A stretch of 63,237 bases of DNA, filler included, from Rozella allomycis CSF55 (GCA_000442015.1; 5 parts of 5 records of this genome joined end to end with filler, not necessarily neighbours in it); one strand, 5' to 3'; numbered from the whole stretch's first letter, positions 49,121-63,237 are shown. Translations and numbers: made by a program. The notes: generated by a model not told the origin, from the letters alone.

Positions 49121-50145
49121 GAACGAATGGTGGCGTCAGCAATTTACTAATCCGAATGGCATATGCAGTTTGACATATTATCTGATGGATTAGCACTTAA
49201 AATTATTATATTAAAAAGAAATTAAAATTGATAATAACTGGTAATTATTTCCCAGAGCCAATTTTCAATATTGTTGATTAACATCTTCGGAGCTACTGCG
49301 AAGCAGAATTTTTTTTTGCGAAGATAANAATCATTAGGAAGTCCAGGGCATTCCTTGACGGCCTGCAGCAGACTCAAGATGGTCGGAAATTCACTCACCG
49401 GTTTGTTGTTTAGCACTCTTTTTACAGAATCCGGAAGCTTTGAGAAACGGAGTTCGTTTAAGAGATTATGTTGCGGTTCCGGAACAGTGAAGGCGATATT
49501 GTTCTCCGTCAAGAGGTCTTGAATCGTCCGATGAATTCCGGCACTCTTTCTCCATGGTAGTACTGTATTTTGAATATCTTNTTAAAAAAATTCTTGAAAC
49601 TGAAAGATCAATTCAATTATTCAGTATATTTGGTACTTCGGTCTAGTGAGGTGCATGGTTCTCTTTCAAGTTTCACCCAGATAACCGGTGTATCAAATTA
49701 CTTGTTACAACGTAAATATTTAAAAAAATAGATTCAAAATGTACATTTAATATTTAAGCACTTTAAACAAATGACTTTCACTATTTATATGGTCGGATAT
49801 TTTTGTTTATACTTGCCAACAACTCAACCGCTCTTTCATCTATTTACATGAGTCTTAATCAAAGGGAGCAAATATATTACACCATTGAATCATCCGAGGA
49901 CAATGAAACGTCAAGCGAAGTCTCCTCAATAATGTCTATATAGCATTGACGTAGACATGAATGCACCACCTTTTACAGCACTGGCAACCAGTGATGGCAT
50001 CTAAGATGATGTGCTCATCCACCGAACGCTCTCTGAACTACTTGGGTTTACGCAAAAATGCTGTGTGTCCATCCGCACGGATCATGCATCCAAAGCCAGT
50101 ATTGGCAAACAATTGGCGACATCCATTGCCAACGGACGTGATGTG

Positions 50146-51109
50146 TGTTAGAATCCAAATTCTAACATGATATTTCAGATTCTACAGTCCGATATTTCAT
50201 ATATAAATAAAGAACAGAGACACGACACTAGTCGTGTTAACTCACCATACACTTTTACGGTTTTTTCTTAACTAGTGCGTAACATTTTTACACGACTACT
50301 ATAACATGACTAGTGCACCGAACTACGACGAACTACACGNCTTTAACACGACTAGTATAACATAACTAGTGCTTAACACTTTAACACGACTACTATAACA
50401 TGACTAGTGCACCGAACTACGACGAACTACACGCTGCTTATCGCGCTTTGCAGCAAGAACTGAACGAACTAAGACTCCAACAACCGATCCCAGCAAACGT
50501 TGCACCGGCAGTTTCCAGCAAGGAACCTAAGACGGCAGACCCACGCTTCTACTCTGAGGGACCACAAGAACTCAGGGAATTGTTACTCCAGCTCGAGCTT
50601 TCCACGCAACGCAACCGTCACGCTTTGACACTGAAGCCAAGAAAGTCGGACATGCCGCCAGTTTCTTACGAGGCGCCGCTGCGAAATGGTTGACAACCTT
50701 TTGGGCCCAGCCAAATAAGTCCTTCCAGGGGTTTCAGGAAAAGTTGCAAGAACAATTTGGAATTTATGACGAGCAAGAAGACGCTACTGAAAGAATGCTG
50801 AACTTGAAGCAAGGGAAGTTGACTGCTGCCGCATTCGTAGCGGAGTACCAACGACTCTACCCATTGACTGGATGGAACGAAACCGCTGTGAAACATACCT
50901 TTCTGAAATCGTTGAATCATGAATCAAGGATTTGCTTGTTGGGAAACTTGAGAAGGACGACTCTCTTGAAAAGTACTTTAAGATGGCTGTTCGCATGGAT
51001 GAACATCTNTACAGTCCGATATTTCATATATAAAAGAAAAACGACACGACCCTTGTCGTGTTAACTCACCAAATCACTTTTACTGTTCTTTCTTAACTAG
51101 TGCTTAACA
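50146..51109 (+). mobile_element. Ty3/gypsy LTR retrotransposon remnant: 5' LTR ~50146-50284, frameshifted gag 50400-51008, partial 3' LTR 51010-51109 (pol missing or collapsed at n 51009)
   Basis: Direct repeats TACAGTCCGATATTTCATATATAAA...TTAACTAGTGC(G/T)TAACA at both ends; TGTTAG...TAACA termini; gag motifs EPKTADPRFY, ATERMLNLKQGKLTAAAFVAEYQRL..TGWNETA..FLKSLN. Confidence 0.85.
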
Positions 51110-51709
51110 TTGATCAATATCTGCTACCGATTGACATTGGCACATCATTGTGCATATCTTTTGTTGGATCAGCGCCACAGTTGTGTTTTGAAATGGGGGC
51201 TCCAAAATGTAGTACGTGATAACGGATATCATCACGAACTAATTTCTGTGGCAAACAATCTAAACAAAATTAAACATTCTATTTCCGTAAACTTCGCGGA
51301 CATTTCAATCCTCATCGAAAATCAATTTATAGATTCCCTAAAATTCCGCAGGGCAAGCATCCAACGTAACCGATTAATAATGGCACCGCTAATAGCAGTA
51401 GTTCCAGATCAGTTAAAATGTCAAATAGTTGGCGCATCATCAATGTGTGCTTGGATCAAGGCTAGATTCGGGCAGAAATACAATGCAACCAACTATACGA
51501 TTGAACTCGCGGGAAACATGATTCAAGATGGCACTGTGCAGTGTATCGGTGATGCGACATTGGTGTGGGACACGGCAGCGAAACGAGATGATTTGGCAGA
51601 TGCATTAGTACAGGCGGTAATGGTTATGAAAGGATTGGAACATCGAAGGATTCTTTTTAAACAAGTTAGTGGGAATATTATGACGCATACAAACTTGACA
51701 GATCCTTAA
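51110..51709 (+). pseudogene. RuvC-fold Holliday junction resolvase-like gene (poxvirus A22 / Ydc2-Cce1 type), frameshifted
   Basis: YLLPIDIGT (other frame, ~51118-51145) joining HCAYLLLD..VLKW; ILIENQ; KRDDLADALVQ, i.e. the acidic motifs of A22/Ydc2-type resolvases. Confidence 0.72.
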
Positions 51710-51898
51710 TCTAAATATAAAATGATTATTGTAAATTACATACCTCGTATCTTTGATCTTTGGCTTTTTTCTCCCTTCCCTAAATCGTATTAAAATAGAT
51801 GTTGAAAAGCCTAATTAATCAATTACTCGATTGATTAGAAACTATAAATAATTTAACTTTCCAAAAGTGTATTTAGTCTTTTACATCATACAGGGGTT

Positions 51899-53400
51899 AT
51901 GTCATAACAGTTACATCTGGAGGAAGATAATACGGACTATGAGGTTGCAGCCGACGATGAGCTCGAGGCGGTCGAGGAGTTGAACAATTTTGACGCTTTG
52001 ATGCAACTACTATCTGGGAACTCTGAAGATGCCATTAATCAATTAATGGAATTAGCAAACCTTGACATAACGACGCCTGAGATGGGGATTGCGGACCTAT
52101 ACTAAGATATTGGAATCTTTACGATTGGAGAATGTGAGCGCATTCGAAAAATGTCGACGAGAGGGCGGCCGCAAGGCACAGGCCGATGTGGAAAATGAAT
52201 TCGTTAATTACTGCAAACTTTATACAAAGGAACCATCGTGAGTAAAGTCAATTTATACGAGTTTATTCAATGGTTATCACAAGCGGGGGATGGCATATTG
52301 GCTTTTCGAACCATAAAGCAACATGTATTTGGGTTGGTTCGGTTATGGAATCAACAAAAGCTTACAAATTTGAAACTAAAAGCCGACGGCATTTCTTATG
52401 ATGCTGATATTAAAATATTACTAAAACGTCATGCGCGACAATGTGTGGCGGAGCAGGGTTACCATCGACGATTTATTGATGTGGTGCTTGCAACGTCTCT
52501 TGATAATAGATACACAATGCAAAATCGTATTGACATTATTTTGAGATCTTTCAGGTGCAGTGACTCAAGTAGAATTGTTCCAGGAATCGGTTTACGCGAC
52601 GCCTTTATGTTAGCACTTCTTGCTCGGACAGGGTTGAGAGGTGAGGAGGTGCGCAAGGTATCATGGCGGCAGTGTCAGCCTTACACGTTTAGGCACAGGC
52701 GTTCTGTTGAACATAAAGGAATGGTTGCGATGCTTGTTGAGAGACAGTAAATGAAGGACGACCAAACGAAATTGGTATTATACTTCACAGAGATCCCAAC
52801 GTGTGTGCATTATGGTGGTTTCCTCTCAAACGGCATTACGATTTTGTTGTTTTGTTGAAATCTCAGGGAACAAAATTGATTGGAACAACCCGGCAGCAGT
52901 GTTCCAATTAATGGTGTGGTCTTCAGGTAAAATTCTAACACATACTATAGGCGCATCATCCCATTACAAACCCTTAAACGAATGTTAGCAAGGCTTACGT
53001 CTGAACTTCAGTAAAAGCACCCATTTAGGTCGCTCCAATTGTGACCGAAATCTCCAGGCTTTAGGGGTGGCAACGGAAGACATTACAATATGGTTAGGGT
53101 GGACGACTGAATCTGCCACATTAGCTACATGCACCAACGACCCTATTATCAGGTTTGTGGAAGCGCAAGGTATCGTCCAAATGAAGTTATGATCCTTGTC
53201 ATTTAAAAATCAATGTAAGTAAATAAATATATTTTCATTAATAGGTTCCGGATAGGTTTGGAATAAGATGTCTTCAAATTTTCGGAGATAGCATTTCACG
53301 AAGGCGAGGAAAGGTATAATTGCATCTGAAACTTTTTGACCATGCTCATTGAATTTCGAAATAATTTTGTCAGTTATTAATTGTACGTTTACAACCTTGC
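51899..53400 (+). pseudogene. Crypton/Ndc10-type tyrosine recombinase, degenerate (end approximate)
   Basis: Across frames: RPQGT..NEFVNYC; GLRDAFMLALLARTGLRGEEVR; GIILHRDPNVCAL; SKSTHLGRS; GVATEDITIWLGW; SYMHQRP (catalytic Tyr region); several stops and frameshifts. Confidence 0.75.
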
Positions 53401-55629
53401 GTCTTGTAACGGCCCGTGTAATTCGGGGTCGTTGATTGCATATCGGCAATACATGTCAGGACGCTGTGACTTTGGGGGAAACGGGCAAATCAATTTATTG
53501 GTTAGATGGACGCGATAAACGCATGTGTTGTTAGCCCTTGTACCGTCGACATCATGTGCAGGGTACGAACCTAGGTAGTAGAGGACGCGTGGCTGGTTAT
53601 CGATGCATTACGTTTTTTTTGTGGTCATTTTATGATGTGTAAAACGGAGAGAATGTTCGCAAGCAAGCTCTTTGTGTGTTGTAATTCTGGTGCGCACCCC
53701 GCGAACGACGTTTTAGCAACGGTAAGTGTCTGTAGAAATCCGTCGGTACCTGAACACATTCTACCTAAAGTAGTTGATCATCAAACCCTGCAAAACGGTA
53801 AAATATGCAATTATACAATATGATGGTGTAAAAAATAGACAGGAATGTTACAAAGTCAATAGTACTTAAGCCAAACAGGGTAAGAATTCTATTTACCAAT
53901 AGTAAAGAAATTCGGGGTATATTCGTGTTACTCGTAACGTAAATATGGTAGTGCATGATAGCGCCGAGGAGACGACAGAAATGTTAGAGGTTTGTGCTAC
54001 AAGGGTTAACGCCGGAGTTACAGGTGGCCGCGATCACAAAATGTAGCGTCGAATAGTGTACAAACCTGAAATGGTCGACCTGACCAAAGCCGCATTGTTT
54101 CTAAGTTTAATTATTTTGGAAATATACTGAAATATATTTAGCTAACAACGGAAGCCATATATCGTTCCCGATAAATAACGAAACCGACCACAATAACGAT
54201 AATGATGCAGGAGTTTAGGTCCAAGCGTCAGAGTTAACAGGAAGTCTAACTATATCTAGCACGCAGCGTCACGGAATGCTGCCATTTTTCAAAACCAACC
54301 CCCAGGCAAAACGGACAAACGGCCATATGTTACTGAAACGACATACTAGTCGCACGGTGGGGGAGCTACGAATGGTTGTAAGATGTTGATATTGCTGCTC
54401 GCAAATATATTGCCAAACGAACAATGCGGGGCAAGCCGTACAGGCCACATTTAAGACTTAACGTAATACCAACGAAAACAGACGTTTCCATATCTCGAGC
54501 TTACTGAGTATTTATTGACAGTCAGACACCCTCGCGTTAGTACCAGCATCGATCTCCGATTTCACATAGTCTTTATCGTCTGCGACAACTCGCCACGATC
54601 CAGTTTGTGTACACCATAACCGACCGCAATAAATAGTGTCTTGCGACCTCGCGTGGCGGGCATGACTGCATTCGTTCCTGAAGACGGTTTTGACGCAATA
54701 ACACATACCTTTTACCAACGGACATTTACATCGCTTAGTACGCCAGAAATTAAGCATCGTCGTCCATATTTTCAGCGTCATATTTGGGTTTGCCACAATA
54801 ATATGCACTAAGATAATTAACTAAGACATGAAGAGACGGAATCTTGTCGCACGATTGCCCACGAACGTATTTCTGATGTCACACGTGCACTTGCGGGATG
54901 TTCGGTAGACATCACGAGTCAAACGTTGAGTTGCAATCTATAATGTTTTAAGTGCGCGCCTAACATATAGCTGTAGCAAAGGTGGACGCGTCACATAAAG
55001 TCGATTTGTGCCCAGGGGTTAGGGGATGGGAATGCACAAATGCACAATGCCTTGGGTGAGTACGTGCCCACGTTATGAGTGCCACACCATTCAACATAGA
55101 GTGTTGAAAATCTCATTATGACTCAAATTCAAATATGTCATACATAGTCCGTTGACGGTGACGTAGGGCGATTTTACAAACGCCCACCTTCGACCTTGAT
55201 AAGTGTCAATTTCAGTTCATAGTTGACCAGGAGCACCCATTATGTTAGTCCATACATAGCGAATGTTCATAAAGTTTCCGCCACTCCAAGGTGTACTTAA
55301 ATAGTTGTATTTGCCTCTCCAGGTCAAATACGTTTCCAATGTCGCTTGATTTTGTGTTAAAAGGTGTGCCTATATATATACATATTTAAATTGGATATGT
55401 TTAATATATCTAGGCCACGTGCAGACCGCTGGGCCCGTATATTCCTGCATGCCTCTTGTCGGAAAGATGCCACTGCGCCGCAGTGACTTACAGGGTACGA
55501 CAAACTACATCTTGCGGACTCGTTTGGTAGTTTAAAATGATTCCTTACATGATGATAGACATTAAGCAATATCGATTTTGCCACAACCTCACAACCTTGC
55601 AGTATCACAGGTACCTTCCGGAGGTATCC

Positions 55630-55975
55630 AATTTCTATGGATGGATTTGTTTCATTCAAGTTAAAATCAAACGAAAATAATTTGTTTTCAAATTCCACTT
55701 AAAGGAATTGTTTATGCTTCTGGTGGCTGGGCAACTGAAATGAAATGAAATGAAATGAAATGAAATGAAATGAAATGAAATTTATTTAANTACCATGACT
55801 GGGGTAATATGTTTGCCTTTCGTTTTTATGTTTTTGTTGCTTGAAAGGGGTGGAACAGAATACTTTAATAGAATGTTCTTCTCCCGGCTTATATTACCTG
55901 GTTTATATTTAATGACAAAAACCAGAATCGATAATGAGTGTAGCCAATTAATCTCGGTGCCCATTGTGTAGTCAA
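55630..55975 (-). pseudogene. Rearranged fragments paralogous to the large F-box gene
   Basis: EFENKLFSFDFNLNETNPSIEI matches ELEGKFSFDLNLNKTNPSTEI (~57830-57900); KNILLKYSVPPLSS matches KNILLEYSIPRLSS (~57300-57345). Confidence 0.6.
55737..55781 (+). repeat. (GAAAT)n microsatellite
   Basis: About nine perfect GAAAT units. Confidence 0.95.
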
Positions 55976-56819
55976 AAATGTAGATTAATAATTACAAGAG
56001 TTCTGAAACATCTACAAATAAGTCTAAACCAAAAGAAATCATTTAGAAGCCAGTTCCAACGTGGCCCCTGATGACCATGACTTCCGACATAAAAAGCTCA
56101 AATCTTTGAATTTTGACACAGAACTTGGTCCATTAGGATTAAAATCGTCTAGGCAGCCGGGAATACACTTTTGGTCTTTAGTCTCAAACTAGGGTATAAT
56201 CAAGTTTCAAGTTTTCAACTTTGACAATCAAATCAATATAGATGAACATAACTGTGCGGAAAAGAACTTAACTGAATTAAATTTATCTAAAATGAATGTT
56301 TTGAATAATAATTACTTAGAAGAAGATCAAAATTTGAAGTTGAAAGACAAAAATGCTGAAAATGAACAGTTTATTGACCACAGAGAAAGCAATCTTAGGA
56401 TGCAGAGCGCCTTTATAAATACACATTATATATGGGTCTTTAACGGAAAAATTCAACAAGACGGGTGATTTCCAAAAACTTAATGATTCTCCCAATTTCA
56501 CTTTAACCAACAACGTTGAACAAGATCGAGACTGTTCGCACATGGTAGCAATGCTTGTTCAACAAATTGTATTTTAAAGAAAACTTGTCTTGGCAAATAC
56601 ACCTTATGGGTTTTATTGGTAGTGCTGGCAAATGAATGTTTTCCAATTTTTATACCAAAGTGCTGCGGGCCTGGGGATATAATCTACTCAATGTACTCAT
56701 TAGATAAATAGTTATAAAGTCGAAATTGATAGAAGTCTGTTACACCTAACGCTATCAACAAGTTGAATAATCATCGGAAGGTTGTAATAAAGAAATACAA
56801 AGATGAAAGATGTTATTTA

Positions 56820-59800
56820 TTATTCAATCATGAATGAGAGACAATCATCTGGCAGCTCTTCAGTCGGAGCCAATAGTTTCAATAACACATTCCTTTCAGC
56901 TCCNCAAACGAAACATACAAGACATGATACTTTTCCAAATATTCGCAATCACCAAAAGAAAATCTGCGAGTGGAATACCAGAATCCTTTTAAAGAGAAAA
57001 TGGATGACTTCTTTTTCTGGAAATGGCCAACTAGTGAAACTTGCGCTGGATTTTGGCTGAATGTTTCTTTTAGTAATGAAAGGAAACTTGGTTGTAGTAG
57101 TTGAAATGGAATGTGTGGAGTAATAAAGTTTTCTGTGGACTGGATATTCTTTAAGAAATGGGCTACGTTTTCTGGCTGTATAGTTGACAGACTAGACAAA
57201 TAATTTGATAAAGAAGCAGGTAAATTGTTATTGTTGTTGGTAGGTTCCACATTGACCAATTTGTAATTGATTGGTTGATAATCAAAGTCTATGTAGTCGA
57301 TGCTTGACAGGCGTGGAATGGAATACTCTAAAAGAATGTTCTTGATCCATTCTCTGCTTTCAGAGGGTTTAAACGATTGATAAAATGACTTCCAATTCTT
57401 ATAGTCAAATGAAAATGAGAATATTCTCGTGAAGTGCAGATTGAAAAGAAAACAATAATCATCAAACATTCTATTGCCACAAATATTTGATATTTCACGA
57501 GCTTTTAATATCAATAGGTTTAAATTCAAAGGATTGAATTGCTTTATGTGATGAAAGTCGTAGAATAAAAGATGAATGAGAATGCCAGGAACAAAAAGAT
57601 CTGGTTCTGATAAAGTTAAATCTAAGAGTGCGTTTAATCTGCTTTCAATCAATATTCTAAAAATAGATTTAAAAATATTCTTACGGTATAAAATTTGTGA
57701 AATTTAGTAAATGACACGTGATGGTATTTTCAAGGGTTGCACTTTCAAGGGTTGGAGATTCACACAGGAAAATAATCCTTCCAGGCAGTTTTAAAGCTTT
57801 ATTAATATTTCGTTTTTCAGTGATAAAGTTTATTTCTGTTGATGGATTTGTTTTATTCAAGTTTAAATCAAAAGAAAATTTGCCTTCCAATTCCACTTGA
57901 AGGAATTGAAGAATATTTGAATCTGACATTAGATTTAGAAATGGGATGATTAATTGAATTATTTTGGAATCAAAAGTTTCAATTAAAGTTAAAATATTCA
58001 TTTGATTTGAATTGTTGATCATTTTCTTTAAAACTGAATGTCTATTGATTTCACCTTTATTGAATTCCACCAACAAGGAATTTCTTAGTCCATTTCTAAC
58101 ATTGTGAACAAATTCATTGCTTATTAATTGTTGCAACATAATTTTCTCATTAACTAAAAGAGAATCTTGAATAAATCTAAAAAATATTTTATAAACACAT
58201 TTCTTCTTTTCAAATAAACAACGATTCATTAAATATTCAAACACAATCTTTTCAATCACTGAAATTTCAGTTTCATTCACTTTAATAACAAAATCAACCA
58301 AATCAATTTCATTTCTAAATTCAAAAGCAACATTGGCAAGAAAGTTGAATTGTTTTTGAAGTTTATTACGCAATGAAACAATCTCATCTGAAATTTTATT
58401 CTTTTCTTTAATTTTTCTTTCATTTTCTTTATGAATTTTATTAAATCTTAGAAATTCTAATCTGCCAGTTTCTGTTTCAATTGAATCTGGAAACTGAATA
58501 GATTCTGTTTCAATTTCTTTTAATTTTTTGAAATAATCAAAATTCTTTTCAATGTAAAATCTCACAAACAAATCACAAAAATGTTGCGGTGAAACATTAA
58601 AACTAAAATTAGAATTACCGTCTGCGCCACGCATCTTGTGATACATTTTAGTGAAAATTGGATCTTTTGACTCTGAAACAACTTTATTTCTTTCATTTCC
58701 CAAATGTTCCAATATAATAATAGATTTCCATGAACAATTATCAAAAGCATTCCAATCAATTCGACAGCCAGTAATACCAGATTGTTTGTTTAGACAATCC
58801 ATCGAATCCCACTGAATTCTATTATTAAACAAATATTCTTTAATTTCATTTTCATTAAATTTATTCAAATAGAGAGCTATAAACAACGAATTCCCAATCA
58901 CATTCAATATTTCCCTTCTACAATCATCAATTTTATCTTCCAGAAATGATTTATATTCTTTAACCTGAAAATTTATACTTTGTTTAAACAAATACTGCTT
59001 TAGTGAATCTCTTGAAAACTTTAGACATGACAGCTGCTTCACAAACTCAATAATCCGCAATATTCCACTATCCCCATCAACATTCTTTATCACATTAACA
59101 TCCTTTTGTTTATTTTTATGGCTAAAAAGCTGTTCACTCTTTTGTATTTGGATTCCCTTCTTCTTTCCATGTTTCAGAAATTTCAGAATCTGATAATGAA
59201 GAGGAAGATTGTAAACAGAAGTGTTGAGAACTTCTATAATAAACTTGTGTAGATAAAACTTGTTATTTATTTGAATGACACAATTCCTATCATCGGTAGG
59301 AAACATCTTTTCCAATGAAATCAATGTCCAATTCAAAATCTCCAATGATTCCACAAACTTTAAACTTTTCGTTTGGCCACTTGAAATCATCTTTTTTAAT
59401 TCGTCATATTCAACCATCTTTTCAGCAAACTGTTTTACAAATCCATTCATTCCAAATTTTCTAATTCATTACAAACAAATTAACATACTTTATTAAAACA
59501 ATACAAGTTTCCAACTGAATAGATTCTAAAACAATCTTCTTTTCTTTCAACTTTACATAAACATTCTTAAAATAGACCTGCCACGGAAACTGCTCGATTG
59601 GTTTATGCAAATACCCGATCCCAAACTTGTAACACCGGTACATCCAAAAGTTTGAATTATTAACCATATGATGCCATCTTCTACTCACAACAACCAATTT
59701 AGAAATACAATCATCTTCTAAATGATAAAAGATGCAGTCTCTAATATCTCCAGGGAAGTTTCCCATCAAATCAAAAGAAAAATCTTTCATTAGTCCATCG

Positions 59801-60554: not shown

Positions 60555-60780
60555 ATTTGAGATTTGAAATTTGAGAAAATAGTTCATAGAGAGCCTCTGC
60601 TACAGCATCACCCCCGTAGTAATAGACTTCGACCATAAGGCCATCGGTTGCAGGTGCTTTACCTAATGCCACATTTTTAATGTTGACAAGGATTGAAACT
60701 TTGGTAATTAGATTTTCAAAGTTGAAAAATTGATCATTATTTATTCCCCCCTCATCTCTTTGGCTTTGATTATTTTCGAT
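60555..60780 (-). mobile_element. Fragment of a second non-LTR retrotransposon RT (N-terminal region)
   Basis: Minus-strand translation IKNVALGKAPATDGLMVEVYYYGGDAVAEALYELF (KAPGxDG motif). Confidence 0.7.
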
Positions 60781-60784
60781 TTGG

Positions 60785-62065
60785 ATCCCTCCCTGGTCCT
60801 AACTCTAAGGCTCCGGGCCCATCATCCATTCCAAACGAATTCTACTCTCCTTTGCCCAATAATCCTAAACACTACCTTCTTGCATTACTCAATGCGTGCC
60901 TAAAATTTAAGGATATACCTAACCAATGGAAGGACGCTAGTATATTTTGCATTCCCAAGAGCTCCACCTGGGATGGCAGCCCTAGTAAACTCAGGCCAAT
61001 TACGCTACTTGAATGTGGCAGAAAAGTCTTTACTCGCATTCTAACAAAGCGGCTGACAGAAGTTATAGACAATAATGAAATTCTAAACCCATATAACTTT
61101 GGCTTCTCTACCGGTCGAAGTACACATGATGTCTTGATAACAATCCGCAACTGTATTGATGTAACACGGGAGACTAAGCAGCCAATCTACATGGCGTGCC
61201 TGGATATCAAAAACGCTTATGACTCAGTCAGCGCAACCTCCATGCGGCTGGCCCTTGAAAGACTCAAAATACCGAGTCAAACAATTGATCTCATTATAAA
61301 TATGGATACGGGGCGGCGATTATCTGTAATTACTAACTATGGTAACACGGATAGCTTCACCCCTGAAAGAGGATTACCTCAAGGTGGAACCTTAGCGCCA
61401 CTACTGAGGAAAATTTTCTACGATCCTCTGATAACGTATCTCAATAGTAACAACGCAAAAGGACTTCACCTATCTTAAAGAGGGAGGACAAAAATATAAA
61501 GGTAAGCGCTCTTGCATACGCCGATGATCTACACCCCATCTCCGCTACACGAGAGGGGCTACAAAACCAACTTGACGTCATCTCTGAATTTCTGCATCTT
61601 CACGGTATTCAAATGGCGGCAAATAAAAGTCATATTCTCACAAACAAATCAGCTGACGAGGTGCTACTTGAACCCCCTTTTATGCTGAATAGAGACCAGA
61701 TCCAGGATATACGTCATAATGGGCATCTAACGCGCGTCCTTGGAGTAGATCTAACGTCCGATGGCCATAACAAACTAATGTTGGCTCATCTAAAGACACA
61801 ACTGCTACATCCTGTATCGGTTATAAAACGCAAACACTGTCCTGCGCCAATACTAATTTACCTGATAAATAGAGTGTTTATCCCTACGGCGCTCTACCGC
61901 CTACAGATAACACCAGTAAATGAAACACAGTTACAACAGGTAAATCCAATCTGGCTCACGCTTGTGAAAAACCGTCTATGCCCGGTTGCACTCCTAACGC
62001 CTGGGTACTTAACCATGAAATAACTAAGCTAGATAATTTTGTCGACATCTACCATCGGCAAATGC
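60785..62065 (+). mobile_element. Non-LTR (LINE-like) retrotransposon reverse transcriptase, frameshifted
   Basis: SKAPGPSSIPNE, WKDA..IPK, RPITLLE..RK, FGFSTGRS, LDIKNAYDSV, RGLPQGGTLAPLL, ALAYADDL (~61515). Confidence 0.92.
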
Positions 62066-62165: not shown

Positions 62166-63237
62166 GTGCAGATCTACATCCCACATATCAAGTTCATCAA
62201 GCATGCCGTGGATACGTTGATTTTGGCCAATCCAAATACTATTCTGATTTATTCTAACTAATCTGATTTTTAAAATCCAGTTAGCAATACCGATATCTTT
62301 AGTATCGAATTTTGACTATGATTTCCTTTACACCTGAAATCATAAATTTATCATTTGATATCATTAATATATCATCAACATAAATCAAAACAATCAACAG
62401 TTTTCCAGATGAATCATATCGATACATCATAGATGGTTGACTTTTTCAGGCAATTAGTCCGGAATCAGACAAATATGGACTAAAAGTTTTGAACCATTCC
62501 GATGATGCTTGATGTAAACCATAAAGAGATTGAAGTAATTGAGCAACCATTTCAACTTTTGTTTCTTTATGATATTCTTCAAAACCAATTCGGAGCTTCA
62601 TGAAATTGGGTTCTGAAAGTTTTCCATATAGAAACGAAGTATTAATAACAATTTGTTCAATGATCCACCCTTGTAAAACAGAAAGAGAAAGAATATATCT
62701 AACAGATTGAATTTTGACAACATGGGAAAAAGTTGATTTATAATCTATATCTTCAACCTGTTGGTAATCACAGCAACCAAGCGAGCCCTAAATCTTTGTA
62801 TATACCCATACTGATCAACTTATAATCAAATACCCATTTTGATCGAATTACTTTTCTATTAGGAGGTGGAGTGACAACTTTCCATGTATTATGTTTCTTT
62901 AAAGATTCCATTTCCTCATACATGGCAGTTATAAAATACTCTCCAAATGGTCCTTCCATAGCTTGTTTTACTGATTTCGGTGGAGATTGACTTGATTAAA
63001 ACATTATTTTGCTTTGGATAATTTGATTTAGATTGAGAAGGCCATTTAATATTTTCTTTTATAGGTCTTGGTAGAGTGCTATTCAACTTTCTTGAGTTCA
63101 AATTTAAAGCTTCAGTNCTATTCAACTTTCTTGAGTTCAAATTTAAAGCTTCAGTCTCATATCGTTGTACAATTTGTCAATTTGAAATGCGTTTTCAAAT
63201 AATGATATGAATTCTCCCCCTTTTAACTTTGAATCGG
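62166..63237 (-). mobile_element. Ty1/copia pol (RT) pseudogene fragment
   Basis: AMYEEMESLKKHNTW..RKVIRSKWVF..K; ARLVA; FLYGKL; SLYGLHQAS..W; LIYVDDIL; frameshifted. Confidence 0.92.

Follow-up and report, generated by a model that had tools for sequence, protein, structure and literature searches.

Relics of a predicted A22/Ydc2-type resolvase and of a tyrosine-recombinase-like gene, side by side in Rozella allomycis: probably a decayed copy of a Crypton-like element

The window analysed for the current report is a stretch of 63,237 nucleotides (filler included) from Rozella allomycis CSF55 (GCA_000442015.1), in which five parts of five records of the genome are joined end to end and are not necessarily neighbours in it. 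Our subject is an island at 49.85-55.65 kb of this window, where two decayed genes follow one another on the plus strand, the first a predicted relative of the RuvC-fold Holliday-junction resolvases of the A22/Ydc2 type and the second likely to have encoded a tyrosine recombinase. A stretch with no recognisable gene lies behind them, and a small retrotransposon relic is lodged in the upstream gene. We describe the two genes, their recurrence in other copies and the composition of the island, and then weigh the interpretation that the whole is probably what is left of a Crypton-like mobile element.

The catalytic core of the resolvase pseudogene occupies positions 51110-51709 (plus strand) and closes with a stop codon at 51707-51709. 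The three motifs by which the first-pass annotation recognised a resolvase-like pseudogene are all in place on the plus strand: IDIG lies at 51130-51141 in frame 1, and ILIENQ (51308-51325) and KRDDLADA (51581-51604) both lie in frame 2, within an open reading frame (ORF) that spans 51101-51709. They supply acidic residues at Asp 51133 (IDIG), Glu 51317 (IENQ) and Asp 51587, 51590 and 51599 (KRDDLAD), among which Asp 51133, Glu 51317 and Asp 51590/51599 give the order D ... E ... D-x-x-D and align with the corresponding motifs of an intact Rozella protein, P0004. Which of these aligned residues are catalytic is something we presume from what is generally held for the family. The lesions of the gene comprise two stops in its presumed N-terminal part (49941 and 50002), an insertion of 964 bp and, somewhere in 51142-51185, a frameshift, while a long open C-terminal frame and the catalytic motifs have been retained in the window copy.

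The resolvase ORF was compared by phmmer with a set of 1.84 billion proteins at E 0.001 or better, and the search returned four matches, P0002 (the gene model of the locus itself), P0001 (a paralogue), P0003 and P0004, with no fungal Cce1/Ydc2 and no viral A22 protein among them; the three whose source was checked all come from R. allomycis CSF55. P0003 (1418 aa, E 3.3e-08) was set aside as an artefact of composition and repeats, being repetitive, matched in six stretches and devoid of RuvC motifs. P0004 is the sole real homologue of the window resolvase beyond the copies of the element. It is an intact protein of 282 aa from R. allomycis CSF55 (gene O9G_006169, on a 21.5-kb contig), single-copy and present in both assemblies, and it matched the query over residues 29-176 at E 7.2e-06; placed on the window by tblastn it gave 28% identity over 164 aa at E 5.7e-12. 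Identities between the two ranged from 28 to 32%, with the D, E and DD motifs collinear, and the piece that carries IDIG is collinear with P0004 residues 73-83, just upstream of the main alignment.

Several comparisons of P0004 indicate the type of enzyme that might be involved. The protein matched the Pfam family Ydc2-catalyt (PF09159) at 32.7 bits against a cut-off of 23, although over profile positions 1-42 of 258 only, and fell narrowly below the cut-off for Pox_A22 (PF04848; 21.9 bits, cut-off 22). The ESM Atlas model of P0004 is RuvC-like, with a predicted template-modelling score (pTM) of 0.78, and its nearest structural neighbours are A22/Ydc2 clusters of the Nucleocytoviricota (188 residues aligned, template-modelling (TM) score 0.56 by query and 0.75 by row), behind which the RuvC clusters rank. 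Nine of the ten Atlas rows shown are A22/Ydc2 and RuvC clusters, with TM scores of 0.48-0.57 (query) and 0.58-0.81 (row); the tenth is a fused protein of 801 aa with a TM score of 0.21 (row). When ranked by Atlas features, a Ydc2 cluster of the Mucoromycota stood in second place. A word-index search with P0004 found P0004 alone among 272 candidates, with no fungal Cce1/Ydc2 protein, and comparison with PDB sequences gave chance-level matches only. The N-terminus of P0004, read by eye, is acidic and unlike a typical mitochondrial presequence. Because of the Pfam match and the Atlas model of P0004, we assign the window gene, through that homologue, to the predicted RuvC-fold resolvases of the A22/Ydc2 type, as had been proposed from the motifs in the first place.

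A side observation concerns the N-termini of the two proteins, each of which shows a hydrophobic run followed by Ser/Asp/Glu residues (P0004 residues 3-14; window 49875-49925), a pattern that we take to look like a SUMO-interaction motif. BLASTP shows no similarity between the two N-termini. The motif is curious because some Cryptons encode a Ulp1 SUMO-protease (PMC3212892).

Upstream of its catalytic core the resolvase gene is interrupted by the relic of a small Ty3-like long terminal repeat (LTR) retrotransposon (TGTTAG...TAACA; 50146-51109, plus strand), which was delimited from Pfam matches to gag, from LTR repeats and from contig joints. Its 5' LTR measures ~141 bp (50146-50286), its leader is duplicated (50269-50433), gag spans 50400-51009, and of the 3' LTR a truncated form is left (51010-51109). 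The gag ORF at 50558-51064 matched Ty3_capsid at 7.5e-12 (45.5 bits, cut-off 29.1) and Retrotrans_gag at 7e-09, and the direct repeats at 50183-50286 and 51010-51111 are 87.6% identical over 105 bp. The relic resembles Ty3/gypsy elements in these two domains, in its two direct LTR remnants and in its TG...CA ends, but differs from them in its very short LTR, in the truncation of the 3' LTR, in the complete deletion of pol and in having no target-site duplication recognisable by eye. Within the leader, a tandem duplication of 94 bp repeats the start codon and the first 11 codons of gag.

Contigs from four public runs were placed on 48.5-57.5 kb of the window at 80% likeness (they are cited below as X1, X4, X6 and X7 contigs where a distinction is needed). 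Related contigs link 50119-50143 straight to 51110-51142, skipping the insert in all four of the X4 joints, each of them different, and in one X6 joint, and the letters between the sides of the joint are those of window positions 51110-51141. Since these joints lack gag, the limits of the insert are set at the TGTTAG of 50146 and the TAACA of 51109, and 49944-50145 can be assigned to the resolvase gene. In that gene the gag piece represents a secondary insertion, which had gone unnoticed in the first-pass annotation. The presumed 5' part of the gene then covers 49848-50145 (plus strand), from an ATG at 49848, near which the gene probably starts, through the two in-frame stops and by contig continuity to the edge of the insert. 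The reading frame given for this part is presumptive, because the N-terminus of P0004 shows no significant similarity to the N-terminal ORFs at 49767-49943 and 50005-50151. In an X6 contig the 30 letters that precede 49944 resemble window positions 49907-49930, as read by eye.

An AT-rich spacer (51710-51898) separates the resolvase pseudogene from a second one of ~430 codons, at 51899-53205 on the plus strand, which was recognised from its frames, from the paralogue P0001 and from the box I and box II motifs of tyrosine recombinases. It opens with an acidic N-terminus, behind which come an N-terminal domain that is predicted to be helical and then boxes I and II. Box I (T-G-L-R-G-E-E-V) is represented by GLRGEEVR at 52631-52654, with its Arg at 52637, and box II by HLGR at 53022-53033 (His 53022, Arg 53031) and LGW at 53094-53102 (Trp 53100). 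Box I stands ~130 codons ahead of H-x-x-R, from which 26 residues lead to the Trp and ~9-10 more to the Tyr or Cys, a spacing that we take to match that of Cre, XerD and lambda integrase. Of the four motifs on which the first-pass annotation had based a tyrosine recombinase, RGEEVR, HLGR and LGW are thus in place, while the fourth, SY, is confined to 53123-53128 and out of frame with LGW, whose own frame reads Ala-Thr-Cys there. The catalytic Tyr has either been displaced by a frameshift (53126-53128) or been replaced by Cys (53130). At least five stops or frame changes lie between 51905 and 53130. The combination of box I and box II was found once in the window and in none of 200 first-order Markov simulations.

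By Atlas features, a 180-aa N-terminal fragment scored 0.94-0.97 to eukaryotic hypothetical, Phage_int_SAM_1 and QRICH1 clusters; the cluster annotated as QRICH1 is molluscan and its annotation is partial. QRICH1 is described as a Crypton-derived gene (PMC3212892). A protein search with the recombinase fragment returned a single match, from R. allomycis CSF55. The best PHROG for a fragment of the recombinase is one of unknown function (E 0.0011 over 21 residues), and P0001 gave chance-level matches only to PDB sequences. Neither the fragments nor P0001 yielded a GCR1_C, DUF3504 or Ndc10_II domain at E limits of 1-10 for pieces of the recombinase and of 0.1 for ORFs of the 3' part. From its motifs and their arrangement, the ORF is likely to have specified a tyrosine recombinase.

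The juxtaposition of the two genes is not peculiar to this locus. P0001 is a gene model of 508 aa for another copy, which is carried on a 6.7-kb contig in the second CSF55 assembly, and it aligns first to the C-terminus of the resolvase (51443-51691, 55%) and then to the recombinase (52162-52233, 52277-52636 with 71% over 120 aa, and 52756-52922), in the same order and on the same strand. The adjacency of the two genes on one strand, as first described for the window, therefore recurs in a copy that has diverged to 55-71% amino acid identity. Residues 286-508 of P0001, its C-terminal 220, have no counterpart in the window and match no Pfam family; they may represent the recombinase C-terminus that is missing here or a flanking gene that the model has fused.

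Related contigs that are 80-90% alike cover 49944-50132 together with 51142-51254, as well as 52397-52965, 52762-53188 (these two at roughly 82-84%) and 53188-55674, and parts of both genes are overlapped by several of them. They also allow one lesion of the window copy to be undone. An 11-nt insert at 52844-52854, which is specific to this copy and represents a local tandem duplication, is absent from three X4 contigs and one X7 contig, where the frame is restored; without it, two frames of the window join to read ...HYDFEISGN..., to be compared with HYVFEISGN in P0001. The lack of the 11 nt in these four contigs and the match to P0001 indicate that the ancestral recombinase ORF was continuous at this point. 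The public gene model of the locus itself, P0002 (EPZ34980.1, a 'hypothetical protein' of 308 aa), maps onto 50400-52102 in five blocks at 90-100% identity and is chimeric, gag having been spliced to a central piece of the resolvase ORF and to the acidic beginning of the recombinase ORF; as a chimera of three unrelated relics, the annotation of EPZ34980.1 needs to be corrected.

Behind the recombinase, the 3' part of the repeated unit extends from 53206 to ~55650, its right edge being approximate. One X4 contig of 1367 bp is collinear with 53188-55674, except that 467, 453 and 879 bp are missing from it, and this collinearity makes the stretch part of the repeated unit. As had been noted for ~53400-55630, only broken ORFs occur here, with stops in all frames, and none of the 59 ORFs of at least 30 aa in 53.15-55.76 kb matched Pfam at E below 0.04. 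Remnants of a capsid, a packaging ATPase or PolB, which had been suggested as things to look for in this region, were found neither among these 59 ORFs (53150-55760) nor among the 18 of a first scan of the island, and the same 18 and 59 translations contained no reverse transcriptase or RNase H family. Among 47 long ORFs from other parts of the window, virus hallmark families were equally absent. An Rfam search of the island with its flanks (E 1 or better) gave no match, the tandem repeats there are trivial ones, and a search for inverted and terminal repeats gave nothing convincing and no pair of terminal inverted repeats.

The composition of the island sets it apart from its surroundings, which bears out the earlier impression of DNA that is less AT-rich and more CpG-rich than the host's. 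In sliding windows over the whole 63 kb, 49.85-55.65 kb ranks first among 5.7-kb windows for both G+C content (GC) and CpG. GC is 0.41-0.44 in 49944-55630, as compared with ~34% for the window, and the observed/expected ratio of CpG is 1.13 versus 0.77 for the remainder of the window, with a peak of 1.2-1.4 at 53.2-55.0 kb. Beyond ~55600 GC is back at the level of the host, which gives the approximate right edge of the island.

We regard the island as probably, if far from certainly, a decayed copy of a low-copy, two-gene, Crypton-like DNA mobile element that has been seen only in Rozella. With the nested insert removed the element measures ~4.9 kb. Its intact ancestor would have carried an upstream A22/Ydc2-type RuvC-fold Holliday-junction resolvase and a downstream tyrosine recombinase on the same strand, followed by ~2.4 kb of 3' sequence, and would have had no reverse transcriptase; a small Ty3-like retrotransposon would later have entered the resolvase gene in its 5' part, and would itself then have been reduced to LTR-gag-LTR. 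The term Crypton is used operationally for a eukaryotic DNA transposon that encodes a tyrosine recombinase, with no implication of monophyly (PMC13465315), and we call the element Crypton-like in this operational sense because it is a recombinase-encoding DNA element without a reverse transcriptase. To that extent the label of a Crypton-type recombinase given in the first-pass annotation can be kept, although as a statement of family membership it finds no match, Ndc10_II included.

A number of observations weigh against this interpretation. The recombinase had no Pfam match in nine fragments or in the read-through protein P0005 (E limits 0.1-10; Ndc10_II, Phage_integrase and DUF3504 included), its best PDB matches had E values of 0.18-0.61 with no recombinase among them, and no relevant family was found in PHROGs and NCBIfam, for which six proteins were searched. 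A tblastn comparison of P0005 with phage records gave two chance matches and no integrase, and in a search of 5.8 billion proteins none of its 24 candidates scored. The box I and box II patterns were composed after the sequence had been inspected, from a general consensus. An AlphaFold2 model of the N-terminal fragment was all-helical and unreliable, with a predicted local distance difference test (pLDDT) of 42.0, and that of P0004 was unusable (pLDDT 32.3); both were built from alignments of two rows. The window resolvase ORF itself has no direct match in Pfam, nor does it match a PHROG or NCBIfam family or, beyond chance level, any PDB sequence, and P0004 may be an ordinary host gene. No intact copy, termini or target-site signature were found. 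No relatives turned up outside Rozella in searches of proteins, of IMG/VR viral contigs and of metagenomes: two scans of viral contigs and two of metagenomes gave 31, 95, 123 and 595 pattern matches, with no relative confirmed by tblastn.

Among other explanations, the resolvase might be host-derived cargo, a P0004-type paralogue that was captured or retro-copied and is passively carried by a recombinase element. Such an origin would suit the fact that the sole homologue is an intact single-copy Rozella protein, found in both assemblies, and Cryptons are known to gain extra genes, examples being CryptonF-2_PS and CryptonS, which encode a Ulp1 peptidase, and MarCry-1_FO with its Mariner fusion (PMC3212892). 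We think it unlikely. An identity to P0004 of only 28-32% means that any capture would have to be ancient. The window copy has kept a long open C-terminal frame with the catalytic motifs, the linkage has been retained in the diverged P0001, and a junction-cutting nuclease is a functionally apt neighbour for a recombinase.

Distinctly unlikely, in our judgement, is an origin as a piece of a large endogenous DNA virus akin to the Nucleocytoviricota or to polintons, with an integrase and an A22-type resolvase, which was the second of the origins proposed beforehand. By structure and by features, P0004 lies nearest to A22/Ydc2 clusters of the Nucleocytoviricota, the composition of the island is foreign to the host, and both enzymes are encoded by endogenous elements of phaeoviruses (PMC13236599). 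Against this, the island ORFs include no hallmark family in either scan, phmmer brought up no viral A22 protein at its threshold, no relatives were found in IMG/VR contigs, and the unit is just ~5 kb long and recurs as the same short unit. The proposal of an endogenous virus is left unsupported by the absence of hallmark genes and of viral-contig relatives.

It is very improbable that there is no element at all, and that a duplicated chromosomal segment or a transposon graveyard has brought an old Ydc2-like pseudogene and an unrelated recombinase relic together by chance. There is transposon debris in the right third of the window, with reverse-transcriptase relics at 60.7-62.8 kb, high-copy repeats at 49.3-49.6 and 56.0-56.5 kb and the nested LTR relic, and the termini of an element were not found; the repeated unit may, moreover, stem from a segmental duplication, and this too counts against the interpretation that we prefer. 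On the other hand, order and strand recur in a copy with 55-71% protein identity, several distinct contigs cover different parts of the unit, and the composition is even over both genes and unlike that of the host. The view that the RuvC-like protein is itself a transposase (a DEDD nuclease of the IS110 type), with the recombinase as an accessory or as a fused second element in the manner of MarCry, can draw on the existence of RuvC-like DEDD transposases (PMC5718144) and of composite elements of a Crypton and a transposase (PMC3212892), but is extremely remote, given that P0004 matches resolvase families (Ydc2-catalyt, Pox_A22) and no transposase family, that its ~280 aa include no additional C-terminal domain of the DNA-binding or transposase kind, and that a search for terminal inverted repeats gave none.

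The low-copy Crypton-like element that we favour can be compared with several known systems. It resembles Cryptons in being a eukaryotic multi-copy DNA element with a tyrosine-recombinase-like protein and with neither a reverse transcriptase nor terminal inverted repeats (PMC3212892, PMC13465315), and in having one accessory gene, as do some Cryptons (a Ulp1/C48 peptidase in CryptonF-2_PS and CryptonS, Mariner in MarCry-1_FO; PMC3212892). It differs from them in that the accessory gene would encode a RuvC-fold junction resolvase, for which we found no Crypton report, and in that there is no match to GCR1_C or DUF3504 and the recombinase shows no measurable family similarity. The order of the D-E-D-D motif and the predicted fold of P0004 recall the poxvirus A22 and fungal mitochondrial Ydc2-Cce1 enzymes (PF04848, PF09159), whereas the resolvase gene of the element adjoins a recombinase gene within a repeated element. 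The integrated phaeoviruses of Ectocarpus are hundreds of kilobases long, with capsid and replication genes, as opposed to ~5 kb with nothing else recognisable, and their resolvase is discussed, in the relevant part of PMC13236599, in connection with genome replication. Integration of the CTX phage by Xer offers a further likeness, in that the exchange of one strand pair is followed by processing of the junction through a factor that is not the recombinase (PMC3442271); the phage system is bacterial, relies on replication or proteins of the host for the junction, and has no dedicated RuvC nuclease encoded by the element.

In eukaryotic transposons that use a tyrosine recombinase (Cryptons, Starships), this enzyme alone is held to be required, both to form and to resolve a Holliday junction. 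An element with a junction-cutting nuclease of its own next to the recombinase would suggest that the junction is passed by another route, which may run one way only. In the scheme that we have in mind, the recombinase would excise and integrate the element by way of a Holliday-junction intermediate, and the resolvase of the element would cut that junction, so that the exchange is completed after one strand pair has been swapped and becomes irreversible. Such a coupling of the two enzymes is a tentative part of our interpretation, less likely than not, and counts among its weak points. We are more doubtful still, and think it rather unlikely, that the island represents a new kind of eukaryotic DNA transposon, with a two-enzyme module in which the tyrosine recombinase would make the Holliday junction and the RuvC-type resolvase would cut it, and of which P0004 would be a still-active or domesticated member.

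A pairing of a junction resolvase with a tyrosine recombinase is so far known only from giant integrating viruses. It is undescribed for a eukaryotic transposon in the literature that we found, the supplementary element lists of the Crypton papers, with their possible accessory genes, lying outside that scope; the statement in the first-pass annotation that the combination is not that of a described fungal transposable element agrees with this, as no published pairing of a Crypton-like element with a junction resolvase turned up. If the interpretation is true, elements of this kind might have been a source or a sink for the A22/Ydc2 resolvase genes that are common to fungi and large DNA viruses. 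The evidence consists of a few decayed copies in one species of a basal fungal lineage.

Some further features of the surroundings of the island can be recorded. The window is eukaryotic, with ordinary nuclear genes that include those for ribosomal L5e, MBOAT, UCH, velvet, ZNF598, WD40, GTPases, pyruvate kinase and PPR proteins. High-copy short repeats flank the island on both sides, at 49330-49580 and 56030-56500; they show no mutual similarity and no Pfam family, and could be either small repeats that are unrelated or elements of a non-autonomous kind. At 49368, within the first of them, 26 X4 contigs carry a variant base (a depth of about 72000 of 72270). To the right of the island there is a (TGAAA)9 microsatellite at 55736, and two pairs of direct repeats, 55631-55710 with 57832-57908 (85%) and 55827-55880 with 57290-57343 (81%), tie the DNA there to the region of a neighbouring ORF of 274 codons, in a differing order, which suggests a local rearrangement or a partial duplication. 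Transposon debris is clustered at the right end of the window, where the reverse-transcriptase relics lie at 60726-62020 on the plus strand (RVT_1, 1.6e-21) and at 62449-62787 on the minus strand (RVT_2, 6.4e-20). Finally, the X1 and X6 contigs have 10 extra letters behind 55430 when compared with the window, which is an assembly or strain difference within the 3' region of the repeated unit.

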